Assembly: GCF_016026235.1 (NCBI RefSeq)
Contig: NZ_CP065613.1
Direction: 5' to 3' (one strand)
DNA: 64,000 nt
From: Escherichia coli
GTDB lineage: Bacteria > Pseudomonadota > Gammaproteobacteria > Enterobacterales > Enterobacteriaceae
In this document: positions 2,340 to 26,334 of the stretch, piece after piece
How the letters are laid out: each line of letters opens with the position of its first letter
Position numbering within the stretch: the first letter of the stretch is position 1
The notes under the pieces: model-generated
Told to the model about the DNA's origin: nothing
Seen by the model: only the letters and a program-made list of their open reading frames with translations
Database searches by the model: none
Program-made: the position numbers and the translations under genes

Positions 2340-3634
2340 CTGAGGGATCCCCAGAAAATTTAGTAAACCATTATCATATTGGTATACCGTTGCTGTAGAA
2401 CTTTCAGCCCTGCGTCAAGTGACAGTGTGTTTAGTATGAGTGGAGAATGTCGAATCACATTCTCCGCCAGTTTTAATAACGAGATGACTCGCCTGTGCTT
2501 CACTGTATTTGCCTGATATTTATGATGTATCCCTTTGTTTTCCAGGCTGAAACCGCTTAACCACATAATGATACTGGCTAATGTTGCGATCAGACTCAAT
2601 ACCGTGACCCGCCCAGATGAATGACTGGCACCAAACCGTAGTCCAAATCCCCAGCGAGGATTTTTTTCATCCCTGAAATTTTGCTCAATTTGCATTCTAC
2701 GGCTGTATAATTTCATTACCTGTTTTGGCGAGAACTCAGTACTGTTTGTGAAAATAAACCATGGTGATTTCCCGGCAGTACGAGCTTTAGCCGTCACCGA
2801 TGGTCTGGTTGCTCTTTCCTTCGAGCGTTTAAATCTACGACCTTTAGGCTTACTTTTATAAAGATAAAAATGCCCTTCATGTTGTGCATTTTTATCTCGA
2901 CCCAGCAGGCCTTCACCTAAATAAATTGCTGTCGTTGATGCTTTTGTGCCTGAGTCCGACACCTTTTCCCAGCCATTACCAACATTGTAATAATGATTGC
3001 CCAGTACCCGGCAAATATAGGTCCAGCCACGGGAGCGGAGCTGTTGGAACCATCGCCCCTGAAAACCGGCATCTGTAATAACAATGACATCAGTCCCGGG
3101 GGAAAAGCACTCAGCAAGCGATTCCAGAAAACGCTCATGTACATCTGCATTCGCTGTCTGTGATGATGGAACGACACAACTCATCAACGGTAAAGAACGC
3201 CCGTCACATGCCAGGCTTGCCCGCAAAAGCTGAAAACGAGAGGCATGATAAGCACTCCAGTCAATGAGTATCACAACACGAGACATTCCCCGCGTAATCT
3301 TTTGGGTAATTCGCTGAAAAATGGTGGAAACCTCATTTTGCAAATGTCGATTCCCCAACAGTCGATCCACCCGCTTTATTTTGTTTTTAACTGATGCCGT
3401 ACCGGTTAAATGACGCCCGATACTGGTAAGTGTGAGGGAAGCGCCATTTATTACAGCATTAGTTGCGTCAATCAGTGATTTTTGACGGTAAAGATGCAAA
3501 GGGGCCAGTATGTTGTTAAGGAAATTTTGGCATAATGAACGTGCAGGCATAGTGGTGATCTCCTTGAAATTGTTAGCACAATCAATTAGATCACATCTCA
3601 CTATGCCTGTCTTGTTTTCTGGGGATTCCTCAGG
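2340..3634 (-). mobile_element. IS4-family insertion sequence (IS10-like), copy 1, ~1295 bp, flanked by 9-bp direct repeat AGCATGCTC
   Basis: Imperfect terminal inverted repeats CTGAGGGATCCCCAG / CTGGGGATTCCTCAG; duplicated 9-mer at 2331..2339 and 3635..3643; internal transposase ORF. Confidence 0.85.
2360..3550 (-). CDS. IS4-family (IS10-like) DDE transposase
   Basis: Motifs KRVDRLLGNRHL, DAGF, YSRRMQIEQNFRDEK, HKYQANTVKHR resemble the IS10 transposase; start placed at MPARSLCQ by alignment to the IS10 transposase N-terminus. Confidence 0.8.
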   Translation of the reverse strand: MPARSLCQNFLNNILAPLHLYRQKSLIDATNAVINGASLTLTSIGRHLTGTASVKNKIKRVDRLLGNRHLQNEVSTIFQRITQKITRGMSRVVILIDWSAYHASRFQLLRASLACDGRSLPLMSCVVPSSQTANADVHERFLESLAECFSPGTDVIVITDAGFQGRWFQQLRSRGWTYICRVLGNHYYNVGNGWEKVSDSGTKASTTAIYLGEGLLGRDKNAQHEGHFYLYKSKPKGRRFKRSKERATRPSVTAKARTAGKSPWFIFTNSTEFSPKQVMKLYSRRMQIEQNFRDEKNPRWGFGLRFGASHSSGRVTVLSLIATLASIIMWLSGFSLENKGIHHKYQANTVKHRRVISLLKLAENVIRHSPLILNTLSLDAGLKVLQQRYTNMIMVY

Positions 3635-3672
3635 AGCATGCTCCGGCCTTCGTTTTCATCACTGTGTTTTGA

Positions 3673-6528
3673 TTACAGCGCGGCGATAACAGCCTGCTGT
3701 TCAATCAGCTTCGCTTTCGCTTCTGCATAGCCTTCCAGCTTCTCACGCTCTTTCGCGATGACCGCTTCCGGTGCGCGGGCGACAAAGCCTTCATTCGCCA
3801 GCTTGTTCTCGATACGGCTGATTTCACCTTCAATCTTCGCCACTTCTTTCGCCAGACGCGCCAGCTCATCTTCTTTGTTGATGAGGCCAGCCATCGGGAT
3901 CAGCAGCTCTGCACCGTCGATGATCTTCGTAACGGAAACCGGACCTTTGTCATCGGCAGGCAGCACGGTGATGCTTTCCAGACGCGCCAGGGTTTGCAGG
4001 AAGCCACGGTTTTCATTTACGCGACGTTCTGCATCCGCGCTGCAACCACGCAGCAGCAGCTCCAGCGGTTTGCCCGGCGCGATGTTCATCTCTGCACGGA
4101 TGTTACGTACCGCAACGATCGCCTGTTTCAGCCACTCGGTGTCGGCCAATGCGGCTTCATCAACCTGAGATGCATCATACTGCGGGAACGGCTGCAGCAT
4201 GATGGTGTCGGCAGTGATACCGCAAAGTACTTTCACACGCTGCCAGATGGTTTCGGTGATGAACGGAATGATCGGATGCGCGAGGCGCAGCAGACCTTCC
4301 AGCACGGTCACCAGCGTATGGCGAGTACCGCGCAGTTCGGCTTCGGTGCCACCGTTCATTACCGGCTTAGTCAGCTCCAGATACCAGTCACAGAACTGGT
4401 TCCAGGTGAACTCATACAGAATGCCTGCGGCGATATCGAAGCGGAAGCTGTCCAGCGCTTCGCGGTACGCTTTGATGGTCTGGTTGAACTCCGCCAGAAT
4501 CCAGCGATCCGCCAGCGACAGCGTCATCTCGCCGCCGTTGAAGCCGCAATCCTGATCTTCGGTGTTCATCAGCACAAAGCGGCTGGCGTTCCACAGCTTG
4601 TTACAGAAGTTACGGTAACCTTCCAGGCGTTTCATATCCCAGTTGATATCGCGACCGGTAGAAGCCAGCGCCGCCAGGGTGAAGCGCAGCGCGTCAGTAC
4701 CGTGCGGTTCAATACCGTTCGGGAACTGCTTCTCGGTGCGCTTACGGATTTTGTCCGCCAGCTGTGGCTGCATCATATTGCCGGTGCGTTTTTCCAGCAG
4801 TTCTGGCAGCGAAATACCGTCAACCATATCCAGTGGATCAATAACGTTACCCTTGGATTTGGACATCTTCTGGCCTTCGTCGTCACGAATCAGGCCGGTC
4901 ATGTAAACAGTGTGGAACGGCACCTGCGGTTTGCCATTTTCATCTTTGATGAAGTGCATGGTCATCATGATCATGCGGGCAATCCAGAAGAAGATGATGT
5001 CGAAACCAGATACCATCACGCTGGTTGGGTGGAACTGACGCAGGGCGTCGGTATTTTCCGGCCAGCCAAGGGTAGAGAAGGTCCACAGCGCAGAAGAGAA
5101 CCAGGTGTCGAGAACGTCTTCGTCCTGACGCAGGACAACATCAGCACCGAGGTTATTTTCTTTACGCACTTCGTCTTCGTTGCGGCCAACATAAACGTTA
5201 CCCGCTTCGTCATACCATGCCGGGATACGGTGACCCCACCACAACTGACGAGAGATACACCAGTCCTGAATATCGCGCATCCAGGAGAAGTACATGTTTT
5301 CGTACTGCTTCGGTACGAACTGAATGTCGCCGTTCTCAACCGCTTCAACTGCCGGTTTCGCCAGGACATCGGCACGCACGTACCACTGGTCGGTCAGCAT
5401 CGGTTCGATGACCACGCCACCACGGTCGCCATAAGGAACGGTCAGGTCATGTGGTTTAATTTCTTCCAGCAGGCCGAGTGCGTCAACCGCAGCAACGACC
5501 GCTTTACGTGCAGCAAAACGCTCCAGTTTCTGGAATTCTGCGGGGATCTCGCTGGAATAAACGTCAGATTCGTTACCTTTGGTATCGAACACCTGGGCAC
5601 TTTCACGGATATCGCCGTCAAAGGTCAGGATGTTGATCATCGGCAGGGCGTGACGTTTACCGACTTCATAGTCGTTAAAGTCGTGCGCCGGGGTGATCTT
5701 CACGCAGCCGGTGCCTTTTTCCATGTCGGCGTGTTCGTCGCCAACGATCGGAATACGACGGTTAACCAGCGGCAGAATGACATATTTGCCAATCAGATCT
5801 TTGTAACGCGGATCTTCCGGGTTAACGGCCACGCCGGTATCGCCCAGCAGGGTTTCCGGACGAGTAGTCGCAACCACCAGATAATCTTTACCATCTGCGG
5901 TTTTCGCGCCGTCAGCCAGCGGATAGCGGATGTGCCACATCGAACCTTTCGATTCGCGGTTTTCCACTTCCAGGTCAGAGATAGCGGTGCGCAGTTTCGG
6001 ATCCCAGTTTACCAGGCGTTTGCCACGGTAAATCAGGTCTTCTTTATACAGACGAACGAAAACTTCTTTCACCGCATTGGACAGGCCTTCGTCCATAGTG
6101 AAGCGTTCACGCTCCCAGTCTACGGAGTTGCCGAGACGGCGCATCTGACGGGTAATGGTGCCGCCAGATTCCGCTTTCCATTCCCAGATTTTGTCGATGA
6201 AAGCTTCGCGGCCGTAGTCGTGACGGGTTTTACCTTCTTCTGCGGCAATCTTGCGCTCAACGACCATCTGGGTAGCGATCCCGGCGTGGTCAGTACCGAC
6301 CTGCCACAGGGTGTTTTTGCCCTGCATGCGCTGATAGCGGATCATGGTATCCATGATGGTTTGCTGGAAGGCGTGACCCATATGCAAACTGCCGGTGACG
6401 TTCGGCGGCGGGATCATGATGCAGAAACTTTCCTGGCTTTCATCGCCATTAGGCTTAAAGTAGCCCTGCTTTTCCCAGTGCTCGTAAAGCGGCTGTTCGA
6501 TATCTTGTGGGTTATATGTCTTTTCCAT
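3673..6528 (-). CDS. valS: valine--tRNA ligase
   Basis: 951-aa ORF with class I aaRS HMGH and KMSKS motifs and C-terminal coiled coil. Confidence 0.97.
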
Positions 6529-19072: not shown

Positions 19073-19157
19073 GCCGAAGTGGCGAAATCGGTAGACGCAG
19101 TTGATTCAAAATCAACCGTAGAAATACGTGCCGGTTCGAGTCCGGCCTTCGGCACCA
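19073..19157 (+). tRNA. leuX: tRNA-Leu (anticodon CAA)
   Basis: 85-nt sequence GCCGAAGTGGCGAAATCGGTAGACGCAGTTGATTCAAAATCAACC...GGCACCA with CAA anticodon loop, long variable arm and 3' CCA. Confidence 0.9.
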
Positions 19158-19320
19158 TTAGTACTTCCAAGAACATCCGAGAAAGTCCAATTATTCCTTA
19201 AAAATCAATGCTTGCAGCGACTTTTACGTCCTGTGTCTTCCGAGGTTGTCCGTTGAAATCCGGATGTTATTGGGGGCATAATTGGGGGCATCTTAACTTC
19301 GATTAGAAATGTGCCCCCAA

Positions 19321-20577
19321 ATGAAGCTTAACGCCAGACAGGTCGAGACCGCAAAGCCAAAAGACAAAACCTACAAAATGGCCGATGGTGGCGGTTTGTA
19401 TCTTGAGGTTTCGGTCAAAGGTTCCAAATACTGGCGCATGAAATACAGACGTCCCTCTGACAAAAAAGAGGATCGCCTCGCTTTTGGTGTTTGGCCTACT
19501 GTGACGCTTGCTCAGGCAAGAGCAAAACGCGATGAAGCTAAAAAGCTTTTAGTACAGGGCATAGACCCAAAAGTCGTACAAAAAGAAGCTCAGGCCGAGA
19601 ATTCGGGGGCATATACTTTTGAAACTATCGCCCGAGAATGGCATGCCAGTAACAAGCGTTGGAGTGAAGACCATCGATCGCGTGTTCTTCGCTATCTTGA
19701 GCTTTATATCTTTCCTCATATTGGTTCGTCCGACATTCGGCAGCTTAAAACCAGCCACCTGTTAACCCCGATTAAAAAAGTTGATGCCAGTGGCAAACAC
19801 GATGTCGCTCAGCGCCTGCAACAGCGCGTCACGGCCATTATGCGTTATGCCGTACAGAACGATTACATCGACTCAAATCCAGCCAGCGATATGGCCGGTG
19901 CGCTATCGACAACCAAAGCGCGACATTACCCTGCTTTACCTTCTAGCCGGTTCCCTGAGTTTCTTGCACGTCTTGCTGCCTATCGCGGCCGCAAAATGAC
20001 GCGTATTGCAGTCGAGTTATCTCTACTTACCTTCGTTCGCTCTAGTGAGATGCGATTTGCCCGATGGGATGAGTTTGATTTTGATAACGCCTGCTGGCGG
20101 ATACCGGCGCGGCGTGAAGAAATCGAAGGTGTGCGTTACTCCTATCGTGGGATGAAGATGAAAGAGGAACATATTGTTCCATTGAGCACTCAGGCTCTAG
20201 CTTTGCTGGATGAGTTGAAGAAGCTTAGTGGAGATAATCCTAGACTGTTTCCCGGTGATCATGATCCCAATAAAGTTATGAGCGAAAACACAGTTAATAA
20301 TGCGCTCAGGACTATGGGCTACGACACACAAACGGAAGTATGTGGGCATGGTTTTAGAACAATGGCGCGTGGTGCTTTGGGGGAGTCGGGGCTTTGGAGT
20401 GATGATGCGATAGAACGTCAGTTAAGCCACTCGGAGCGCAATAATGTTCGTGCAGCTTATATCCATACTTCAGAGCATTTGGACGAACGTCGATTGATGA
20501 TGCAATGGTGGGCGGATTTCCTATCAGCAAATCGTGAGACTTTCGTAACACCATTTGATTTTGCAAAAAAATATTAA
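19321..20577 (+). CDS. intB: P4-type tyrosine integrase
   Basis: Begins MKLNARQVETAKPKDKTYK; C-terminal catalytic region with HGFR...R motifs; lies immediately 3' of a tRNA gene. Confidence 0.9.
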   Translation: MKLNARQVETAKPKDKTYKMADGGGLYLEVSVKGSKYWRMKYRRPSDKKEDRLAFGVWPTVTLAQARAKRDEAKKLLVQGIDPKVVQKEAQAENSGAYTFETIAREWHASNKRWSEDHRSRVLRYLELYIFPHIGSSDIRQLKTSHLLTPIKKVDASGKHDVAQRLQQRVTAIMRYAVQNDYIDSNPASDMAGALSTTKARHYPALPSSRFPEFLARLAAYRGRKMTRIAVELSLLTFVRSSEMRFARWDEFDFDNACWRIPARREEIEGVRYSYRGMKMKEEHIVPLSTQALALLDELKKLSGDNPRLFPGDHDPNKVMSENTVNNALRTMGYDTQTEVCGHGFRTMARGALGESGLWSDDAIERQLSHSERNNVRAAYIHTSEHLDERRLMMQWWADFLSANRETFVTPFDFAKKY

Positions 20578-20668: not shown

Positions 20669-23409
20669 ATGATTACAAAAGATATAGTTGTTAGTGCATA
20701 TAATTGTCTTAAGTCATATGCTTACTACGAAAACTTAAATTTTTTCCTAAAGGAAGAAATCGCTCAATTTGAAGATTCTCTCTATGACGAAAAAATAGAA
20801 AAAGTGGTTGATTTTTTTGAAAATAATAATGACATTAACTTTAATGAGTGGCTAAATAAAATTGATGTTGAATTATTACCAAAAAAAATTGATAGCCATT
20901 TGGATATTGAGCAAACGAGCGGAGCTCTTTTTTTAAGTAATAATAAGACATCAGATGAATACAAAGTAGGTGCTGTAAATTATTTGATCGTTGCTCCTAT
21001 TGAAATATATTTAATAGAAACACTCTGGTCTATCTTTGTTGGTTCAATGCTAGATGACAAGTTTTCTGATTCGGTTTATGGAAATAGAATATCAAAAGTA
21101 ATAAAAAATATTCTAAGAATAGTTTCGATGCGCCAAAAAACTCCTCAAAAAATATCTTTGAAAGATACATTGATAATTATAATAAATGGCGAGATGGTGG
21201 TATCGATAAAGCGATAGAAGTTATAGAAAAAGAGCGAAATGATGTTGCAATTCTTTCTCTGGATCTTAAGGGTTTTTATTATAATATAGATATAGATTTT
21301 GATGCCATTGATAGAATTATTGACGAAGAACAATTAGAAGAAATTAAAGCTCTTTCTATGTTGTTGAATAGTAAATTGAGGTTGATGCATCAAAAATACA
21401 GAGAGAAAATATCTCCATATATTGGTGTGACACATTCAACTCCTTCATCAAAAGGCATTCCAATTGGATTTACTTCTTCTGCCATATTATCTAATTGGTA
21501 TTTAATGGGTTTTGATAAAGATATTAAATCAAAAATTAACCCATCGTACTACGGTCGCTATGTGGATGATATTCTTTTAGTTTTTTCATCCCCGGACATT
21601 AAAAAAGAAGATAAAGGTGAAGAAGTAATAAAATTCATAGAGCGAACCCTTAATGGATTCATTAAACAGGCAGCGAATGATGAGAAAGGCTTTACGTTGA
21701 CCGAGAGTTATCATGAATTACCAATTCAAAAGGATAAATTGATTTTTCATTATTTCAATAAAGATCATAGTTTGGCTGGTTTACAAGTCTTCAAACAAGA
21801 AATTGAGAACAGAAGCAGTGCATTTCGTTTTTTACCGGAAGAACATATATCTAGCGATCTCGATAAATTTGCTTATGATATATTACTTGATGGTTCGGCA
21901 AATAAATTTAGAAGTATTGTAGGTTTGGCAGAGAATGAAACTGAATTATCAAAATATATATCATCACATATCTTAGCTCATAGGCTTTGCAATCTTCCAT
22001 CGAATGAGAATACCTTAAAGCAAATAACGCTGTTTTTTAAAGGTGAAAATTCTCTAAGGTTCAGTCGGTTATGGGAGAAAGTTCTATCGTATACATTAAT
22101 TACAAGAAAATATGGATTTTCAATCGCCTTTTACAAACAAATTAAAGAATCAATTAATAAAATTAAGTGGAAGGAAGGTGATAGTGTTATATCTCCAAAA
22201 CTTAAAAATGGAATGCAGAAATACATTGATATTTCTCTTTGTTTGAATTTGGCTTTGTTAGATTTAAATGTCATTTTAGGTGATAAAGAGCCACAAAATA
22301 GAGCTTTGGAAGGTTTGAAATCTTTAATTAAACAGTCCGATGGAATGTCTGTTCTAATTGAAAGATTTAGAAGCAGTAATTTGATTCGTCATAATCTAGT
22401 GTCTTGGCCTTTAGCTAACTATACTAAATATAAAGGAGATCTTACTGAGGAGAATTTATACAGTAAGATGCATGGTATTCCACTTGATAATGATAAATTA
22501 AATAAAACCCCTAGATATATTCATGCTGATGAAAAGCAGCTTTTCGATTTGATTGATGCTCTTCATACAAGAAAACTACATAAGTTTACGCATGAAAATA
22601 AGCATCACTTAAAAAATTGCTCTGTTACTAAGATAAAAGATAATAAAGCTCTTGAAATAAAGGTAGGAATTGATGATAGAAGTGGTAATGACACAATAAA
22701 AGTTGCGTTGGCAAATATGAGAGTTGAACGTCGTAATATTGAAAGTGCTTGCAGAAAAGATCAGTCTCCAAATTTAAGTTATGAACGACAAAGAAACCTT
22801 TATCGTATTCTCAACTCGGCAACTGAAGAAAATGTGCAGATATTACTACTCCCTGAGTTATCAATTCCTGTGTCGTGGTTACCTTTTATGGCAGCACATT
22901 CAAGGAGAAAACAAATATCTTTGATTTTCGGATTAGAGCATTGGGTTATTAACGAACGCGCATATAATATTTTGGTTGAAATGCTGCCTTATACTTCAAA
23001 CTTTAAACACAAATCCAGTATGTTAGTTTTTCGAGTGAAAAATCATTACGCACCTAGTGAGATTACGATGCTGAATTCTTTAAGGTTAAAAATATCCTCT
23101 CCTAAACCTAGTAAACAACGGTATCATTTGATTAAGTGGAAAAACGTATCATTTTCTACATACAACTGTTTTGAACTGGCTAATATCGAGCATAGAGCAT
23201 TATTTCGTTCGCAGTTGGATATTTTATTTGCTTGCGTATGGAATCAAGATATAAATTATTATCAACATATCACTGAGTCAGCGACACGGGATTTACATTG
23301 TTATGTGGCTCAATCGAATACTTCGCATTATGGCGGTTCTTGTGTTCTACAACCGACCAGTAGCACTATTTCAAATAAGATATATGTAAAAGGTGGGGAA
23401 AACCACTGA
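20669..23409 (+). pseudogene. reverse transcriptase-nitrilase fusion (DRT1/UG1-like), with a -1 frame change near 21130-21155 and 3' end severed by IS insertion
   Basis: Frame switch between ORF 20669..21217 and the frame carrying RT motif A (AILSLDLKGFYYNID) and motif C (YGRYVDDILLVF); C-terminal nitrilase-superfamily triad motifs LLLPELSIP, FRVKNHYAPSE, STYNCFELAN; stop codon TGA supplied by the IS end. Confidence 0.7.
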
Positions 23410-25534: not shown

Positions 25535-25735
25535 TTTTTTTACCTGCGCGCAATGCTCTCCCCGCCTCGCCCGCCCGCTTTGCGGGGCGGTTTTAATGCA
25601 GTTGCACTGACACGCTCAGACCGCGCCGGGAATGGCGCGGTCTGCAGAAAATGAGGCAGGGAAACGCATGCAAAGCCATGCACCTTATCGATGCATGGCT
25701 TTTTTCAGTAAAAACAGGCGGATTTTCGGGGAATT

Positions 25736-26279
25736 TTACACAGACTGACGTGATGCCAGTTGCGCACTTTTACGCGAAAAAATCATGTTCTGCGCAGGGG
25801 TGAATTTTTCACGGCTGTCATCCACCGAAGCCGCGTCAGGCCTGAATCCGATGGTCGTTAAAATGTCGCTATCCTGTGCGGAATAATTAATTTTTTCACC
25901 CTTCGCAAGCCAGGACAGGAGGGCTTCACGCAGGGCATCTGTGGCACGCTGTATGGCACAGTTTCGGGCAATGGCCGTCAGCTCACTGTAGCCCATCAGC
26001 TCCGGTGCCAGTGCCGCCGCCAGTGCTGTGCCGTGCTGCTGCATAAAATCATTCAGCCGGTCGCGGATGCTGATGTGCTGAACGGCTTCATGCGAACGAA
26101 TATAACGACCGGCGGCCTGATTCACCTGCCATTTTCTGACTTCGATAATATTGCGTAATTCGTCCAGGCGACTGACGTTTCTGCCTTCTCCTGACAGAAG
26201 CCGCAGATATTCCTGTTCGGCCGCAGCCAGCTCATTTTTGCGTTGCAGCCATGCTGCTTTGTTATTCTGACAGGTGTCA
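25736..26279 (-). pseudogene. psu: P4 Psu-like (polarity suppression) protein, 5' end truncated by IS1
   Basis: 180-aa alpha-helical product recognised as P4 Psu-like; the first codons of ORF 25736..26293 are read from IS1 terminal sequence, so the native start is missing. Confidence 0.55.
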
Positions 26280-26334
26280 GGTAATGCTGCCAACTTACTG
26301 ATTTAGTGTATGATGGTGATTTTAAGGTGCTTGC

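Follow-up and report, generated by a model that had tools for sequence, protein, structure and literature searches.

What are the short GGGGGCA-containing repeats that lie between a tRNA gene and a phage-type integrase gene in the 64-kb stretch of E. coli DNA analysed here (the window), and at which of two in-frame ATG codons does the integrase begin? The tRNA gene is leuX, tRNA-Leu(CAA), at 19073..19157 (+), identified by ARAGORN and by an Rfam tRNA match of 59.4 bits. The genes ahr, idnK and idnD flank it upstream, as expected for the E. coli leuX locus. This tRNA is the integration target, and the 20-bp attL core at its 3' end (19138..19157, +) is identical to the 'attP core' at 4078-4097 of phage P4 (X51522).

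Direct reading of the sequence places ATTGGGGGCATAATTGGGGGCATC at 19269-19292 and ATGTGCCCCCAA, the reverse complement of TTGGGGGCACAT, at 19309-19320. A repeat search returned an 11-nt direct pair, ATTGGGGGCAT (19269-19279 and 19281-19291; period 12 nt), and an inverted pair, TGCCCCCAA (19282-19290 and 19312-19320), with 100% complementarity. Both agree with the initial annotation, which had described two direct copies of TTGGGGGCA and an inverted copy over the first in-frame ATG of the integrase reading frame. Exact TTGGGGGCA occurs three times on the two strands of the window, as direct copies that start at 19270 and 19282 and as the inverted copy at 19312-19320, all inside one 51-bp stretch. 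Shuffled versions of the window hold a mean of 0.68 copies, and three copies anywhere were reached in 3 of 100 shuffles. Three copies within 51 bp are far beyond chance, with a probability that we roughly estimate at ~1e-7. When one mismatch is allowed, the sole extra copy nearby is a degenerate TCGGGGGCA at 19603, inside int.

The repeats correspond to annotated features of phage P4. Window positions 19120-19420 align without gaps, at 96% identity, with the P' arm of P4 attP and the start of int, and the homologous 12-mers are labelled 'attP arm sequence repeat' in GenBank entries X51522 and NC_001609. Base for base, arm-type repeat 1 (TTGGGGGCATAA; 19270..19281, +) is P4 feature 3954-3965, repeat 2 (TTGGGGGCATCT; 19282..19293, +) is 3942-3953, and the inverted repeat 3 (TTGGGGGCACAT on the - strand; 19309..19320) is 3915-3926, which lies over the P4 int ATG. 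Here the inverted unit spans the upstream ATG (19309) and borders on the second one (19321). The 12-bp units (consensus TTGGGGGCAYNN), two direct and one inverted, are thus at the positions annotated in P4, and the whole group (19270-19320) sits between the core at the 3' end of tRNA-Leu(CAA) and the int start at 19309 or 19321. The initial annotation had suggested that the repeats might be arm-type or autoregulatory sites of the integrase. The P4 features, the arm-binding domain of the integrase, the overlap with the promoter and the published autorepression in P4 (both discussed below) all point the same way. The TTGGGGGCA units are very probably P'-arm arm-type sites of a P4-type integrase, located at the attL junction of a P4-like remnant in leuX, where they overlap the int promoter (Pint), which Int bound to them would repress. 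Our reading of them as a putative Int operator draws on the GenBank features and on secondary citations. The arrangement itself is the P4 layout of arm sites and Pint operator that is already described and annotated; it is ordinary and already known.

P4 has further features with the same label, at 4163-4174 and 4151-4162 on the P arm and at 3621-3632 inside int. The counterpart of the last one, TCGGGGGCATAT at 19603..19614 (+), encodes Ser-Gly-Ala-Tyr in int. We rejected it as a constrained site, as the wobble positions of these codons vary freely among orthologues (GGG/GGA/GGC/GGT and GCA/GCC/GCG/GCT). This fourth annotated repeat probably resembles the arm units by chance and does not function as a binding site. 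Given this lack of constraint at the DNA level, an annotated copy is not necessarily functional.

The adjacent gene (19321..20577, +) is that of a P4-type tyrosine integrase, which has an arm-binding domain at its N-terminus. The product has 418 aa from the conserved start, or 422 aa from a possible alternative start at 19309, and is 91.5% identical to P4 Int at the amino acid level. Pfam profiles matched are Arm-DNA-bind_3 (residues 3-89 counted from 19321, E 4e-26), Phage_int_M and Phage_integrase. The open reading frame at 19309-20577 opens with ATG TGC CCC CAA ATG, so that in-frame ATG codons occur at 19309 (the first) and 19321. Both are in frame here and in P4, and the classical P4 annotation starts int at the first. 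The initial annotation had raised the possibility that the ATG at 19309 belongs to an operator and is not the true start, and comparison across loci favours this view. None of the 32 P4-clade loci (described below) lacks the ATG equivalent to 19321 (MKLNARQ..., MKLNARQVETAKP...). The equivalent of 19309 is in frame in 15 of the 32; in the other 17 an extra A displaces it (spacing of 13 nt), or it is shifted, mutated, or followed by a stop in frame. PGAP places the start at the 19321 equivalent in four of four E. coli genomes. Since the 19321 ATG is kept throughout the clade, the Pfam profile begins at residue 3 and PGAP makes the same choice, 19321 is, as judged from these alignments, the conserved int start, and its annotation as such is supported. 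The ATG at 19309 would exist because it is part of a binding site, ATGTGCCCCCAA being the complement of TTGGGGGCACAT. As both codons are in frame here, some initiation at 19309 may also occur; P4 Int, reportedly, may be translated from two start codons. A terminator-like hairpin, GGCCGATGGTGGCGGTT followed by TGTATCTT, occurs on the + strand at 19380-19396, some 60 nt inside the int coding sequence. Short 5' int transcripts have been reported in P4 lysogens, and the hairpin might relate to these.

The direct repeats overlap the int promoter. A sigma-70-like promoter scan of 19100-19450 returned a single match, with a -35 of TTGAAA at 19253..19258 (+) and a -10 of CATAAT at 19277..19282 (+). 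The -35 is homologous to that of X05947 (GTTGAAA), and the -10, which spans the junction of direct repeats 1 and 2, is the X05947 -10 feature. The hexamers in X05947 are a consensus-based annotation, and both Pint and its overlap with the repeats are assigned here by sequence alone. Comparison with the P4 int promoter and attP arm sites thus finds the repeats and the -35/-10 pair alike at annotated P4 positions. The transcription start is predicted to fall within repeat 2, near 19289-19291. According to PMC2951348 and PMC7286903, which both cite Piazzolla et al. (2006), P4 Int binds DNA directly near the transcription start and so represses its own promoter. Both also report down-regulation of P4 int by Vis, with Piazzolla et al. 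(2006) and Pierson & Kahn (1987) as sources. PMC2951348 mentions a suggestion that Vis targets int mRNA, and PMC7286903 includes an IHF site in the P4 int region. We found no match to the IHF consensus WATCAANNNNTTR in 19158-19325 at one mismatch or fewer.

By analogy with P4, Int autorepression may also operate at 19270-19320. Int would be heterobivalent, with its N-terminal Arm-DNA-bind_3 domain bound to the 12-bp units and its C-terminal domains acting on the core in the 3' end of the tRNA. The int promoter would lie inside the arm, with the -10 at the junction of repeats 1 and 2 and the predicted start in repeat 2, and the inverted repeat would fall at about +20 to +30, in a short leader and over the upstream ATG at 19309. 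Because the -10 and the predicted start are inside the repeats, bound Int would occlude RNA polymerase, and possibly also the start of translation, and so repress its own synthesis. The N-terminus of P4 Int is reportedly sufficient for autorepression. In an intact element the same arm sites would also help to build the integrative and excisive complexes.

The element at leuX is no longer intact. P4 positions 2717-4101 (int and the arm) correspond to 19134-20518, and P4 10917-11624 (psu and cos) correspond to 25572-26279; beyond int and psu/cos, no other P4 DNA or protein homology was detected in the window. The only P4 proteins with a counterpart in the window are Int and Psu (residues 11-190). 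We did not find vis, alpha, sid, delta, cI, epsilon, attR or the P arm in the window. A second core is absent from the window at up to four mismatches, as are partner P-arm repeats beside such a core (attR) and any other GGGGGCA cluster. The missing P arm and attR reflect truncation of the element and leave the identity of the P' sites unchanged. Without attR, P arm or vis, the sites can no longer serve recombination here. As the replication genes are lost as well, autoregulation of an orphan int would be the one plausible role that is left to them. The repeats mark the left boundary (attL) of the leuX island, which is a decayed P4-like satellite, and they are of value for its annotation.

Other parts of the remnant are also recognizable. 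The cos and psu segment (25572-26293) has 98.9% DNA identity to P4, and its psu lacks the codons for the first 10 residues. P4 homology ends at ~26279, where IS1-like sequence begins, and the satellite is truncated at that point. Between int and cos/psu, at 20669-23409, the cargo is a defence-type reverse transcriptase (PADLOC RT_UG5-nitrilase), in the position occupied in P4 by cII, beta and gop. It is split into two open reading frames that cover profile positions 1-150 and 231-913 of 958, and is apparently disrupted.

We then consider how widely the repeats are kept. The arm and the 5' region of int are present at leuX in ~718 of 5,426 complete E. coli genomes. Alignment of four E. coli leuX variants and P4 (query regions 91-100% identical to the window) shows that the sequence is invariant from the -35 through the start codon and that the proximal arm is variable. 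A cross-species scan with one genome per species gave 79 loci, whose integrases range from 97% to 36% protein identity. The P4 clade accounts for 32 of these loci, in Buttiauxella, Kluyvera, Citrobacter, Raoultella, Serratia, Pantoea, Erwinia, Dickeya, Rosenbergiella, Edwardsiella and others. Absence of the motif from other P4-type loci would have counted against its being an integrase site. The motif proved to be conserved there: in 23 of the 32, exact GGGGGCA is present as two or more direct copies together with an inverted one, and the count rises to 26 when up to one mismatch is allowed. In a set of 27 unique arms, the inverted core matches the window at 0.97 identity, and direct repeats 2 and 1 match it at 0.93 and 0.84; the corresponding values are 0.90 for the -35, 0.88 for the -10, and 0.71-0.73 for the rest of the arm. 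On these alignments, the cross-genus pattern is one of constraint in the lineage as a whole. Copy number varies among the loci: four have three direct copies (L013, L014, L016 and L028) and five have one or none (L017, L022, L025, L035 and L039). By eye, the -35 has moved with a deletion in the single-copy loci L025 and L035, which preserves the -35/-10 spacing.

The layout extends beyond the motif. Integrases at 36-62% identity have no GGGGGCA; clade-specific motifs are found in its place (e.g., GTTGGTA, GGGGGTA, GGTGCTA and TTAGGCCC). An unbiased layout search identified two direct copies at a 12-bp period, with an inverted copy shortly 5' of the start codon, in 56 of 77 upstream regions. 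Among controls, 2 of 73 regions taken further upstream and 0 of 77 taken from within the gene had this layout. Some clades (loci L053 and L054) have a perfect TTGACA-17-TATAAT promoter with the -10 within the repeat. Since the motif changes while the layout is fixed, the pattern is that expected of sites read by a co-evolving protein domain. Motif similarity and N-terminal domain identity are related over all loci (rho -0.77), a correlation that is significant but confounded by phylogeny; among the 36 distant loci it is not significant (rho -0.27, p 0.11). There is one single-locus anecdote for co-evolution, L059, in which the N-terminal domain is 62% identical, the catalytic domain is 39.5% identical, and the motif is TTGGGGGTA.

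A mosaic locus occurs in Yersinia vastinensis (L060, 1900-3100), where int is frameshifted and the arm motif is TGCGGGTA. Its N-terminal domain is 58% identical to that of the integrase in the window, and its best tblastn segment is 78% identical to the same Int. The locus looks recombinant, as if the arm sites had moved together with the domain that binds them.

Two direct sites at a 12-bp period that carry the -10, with an inverted site before the start codon, are thus a lineage-wide hallmark of Arm-DNA-bind_3 integrases. It could serve to predict where arm sites and autoregulated int promoters lie in genomic islands. The survey adds to existing knowledge of these sites and overturns nothing.

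Could the inverted pair act in RNA instead? In a transcript that reads through from leuX, or one that begins upstream, direct repeat 1 or 2 could pair with the inverted copy to form a hairpin that sequesters the ATG at 19309, abuts 19321 and lowers int translation. The region 19262-19330 does fold into a stem of -23 kcal/mol (z -2.57; 3 of 200 shuffles fold as well), the inverted relation persists where the motif differs between clades, and no Shine-Dalgarno sequence is visible 5' of either ATG. However, an RNA hairpin leaves unexplained both the tandem direct copies at a 12-bp period and the copies on the P arm of P4. The annotated -10 lies within the 5' arm of the hairpin, so a transcript from Pint would lack that arm and an upstream start would be needed; folded from the predicted Pint start, the RNA is unremarkable (z -0.42). 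The hairpin also corresponds to no Rfam family and has no U-run for termination. We therefore consider this explanation improbable, with a small chance of being correct. An intrinsic terminator or other structured RNA was also considered and rejected, as there is no terminator at the inverted repeat and Rfam recognizes only the tRNA; a DicF match scores 17.8 bits, below the gathering score (48), and is due to chance.

The repeats might also be vestigial, inherited with a P4-like arm, kept because the element is young, and without function at a decayed locus. The loss of attR, the P arm, vis, alpha, sid and delta is consistent with this, as is the 96% identity of the arm to P4; at that identity, E. 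coli sequences on their own do not distinguish constraint from recent descent. The 27 arms from many genera do bear on the question, and argue against neutral decay of the sites: the cores of direct repeat 2 and the inverted repeat are at 0.93-0.97 and the -35 at 0.90, versus 0.71-0.73 for the rest of the arm. The constraint is seen in the lineage as a whole; at this locus itself, the int reading frame is intact and retains all three domains. That the repeats are merely relics here seems very improbable to us. The preferred reading is still that they are arm-type sites through which Int would regulate its own promoter.

Two further elements of the arm were identified. CTTCGAT (19297..19303, +), located between the second direct repeat and the inverted one, is the best-conserved 7-mer of the arm (0.995 over the 27 unique arms). 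In other clades with other arm motifs, GGTTCRAT is found at this position (L029, L030, L033, L038, L059, L060, L064, L067 and L085). Over 6-9 nt it exactly matches the T arm of the target tRNA next to it, in the 5' half of that arm (shuffle p 0-0.018 at individual loci). In the P4 clade only TTCGA matches the T arm (p ~0.04), and the clade that targets tmRNA lacks the element. Covariation of GGTTCRAT with the T loop of the neighbouring tRNA is mixed, with agreement in L064, L067 and L038 and disagreement in L059 and L024. One speculative idea, which we think rather unlikely, is that CTTCGAT is a pseudo core-type half-site, such that Int would be bivalent on its own promoter, contacting the repeats through its arm domain and a mimic of the T arm through its core-binding domain. 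If this were true, generic recognition of GGTTCRA could explain the preference of the family for T-loop targets in tRNAs. Alternatively, CTTCGAT could be a 5'-UTR element, for example the reported RNA target of Vis.

The second element is a pair of phased NTCC arrays between the core and the repeats. Array 1 (19165..19197, +) has four units phased at 9-10 bp (19165, 19175, 19185 and 19194), and array 2 (19228..19261, +) has four units phased at 10 bp (19228, 19238, 19248 and 19258). The P' arm contains eight NTCC tetramers, and every one of them belongs to one of the two arrays. The last unit of array 2 overlaps the -35 (TTGAAATCC), and this array is partly conserved among the 27 arms. Such phasing is the pattern expected of sites for a directionality factor, and the arrays may be Vis binding boxes; two Vis boxes have reportedly been mapped between the core and int. 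Three distant loci (L045, L057 and L038) also have similar phased TCC arrays ahead of their arm repeats.

Among known systems, the closest is the P' arm and Pint of phage P4 itself. The 12-bp units are the same in both and are spaced and oriented alike; in both they overlap the -10 and the first ATG, the 20-bp core lies in leuX, and the integrases are 91.5% identical. Unlike P4, the element here is a truncated remnant that consists of int, replaced cargo, cos and most of psu, and the P-arm repeats, vis and attR are missing from it. Int is also 18 aa shorter at its end than the 440-aa P4 product. The Int of phage lambda is similarly heterobivalent, with an N-terminal domain that binds short repeated arm sites far from the core. 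In contrast, lambda P'1-P'3 are three direct copies that do not overlap an int promoter, and lambda int is expressed from PI and PL. Heterobivalent integrases with arm sites distant from the core are summarised in PMC2951348.

The prophage KplE1 (HK620-like), with IntS and TorI, offers a parallel in regulation. As described by Panis et al. (2010; PMC2951348), its attL overlaps the intS promoter and int adjoins the tRNA at attL. The arm-type P' sites extend over the -10 there, and both Int and the directionality factor act as repressors of int. KplE1 differs in that its integrase is of another lineage, its target is argW, its arm motif contains TAAA, and its sites are arranged differently (PMC2951348). 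Chitto et al. (2020; PMC7286903) describe another P4-like island integrase that represses its own promoter, IntI of PAI I536 in uropathogenic E. coli. That island differs from the leuX remnant in its tRNA locus and upstream sequence, and attenuation by IHF is reported there as the main control (PMC7286903).
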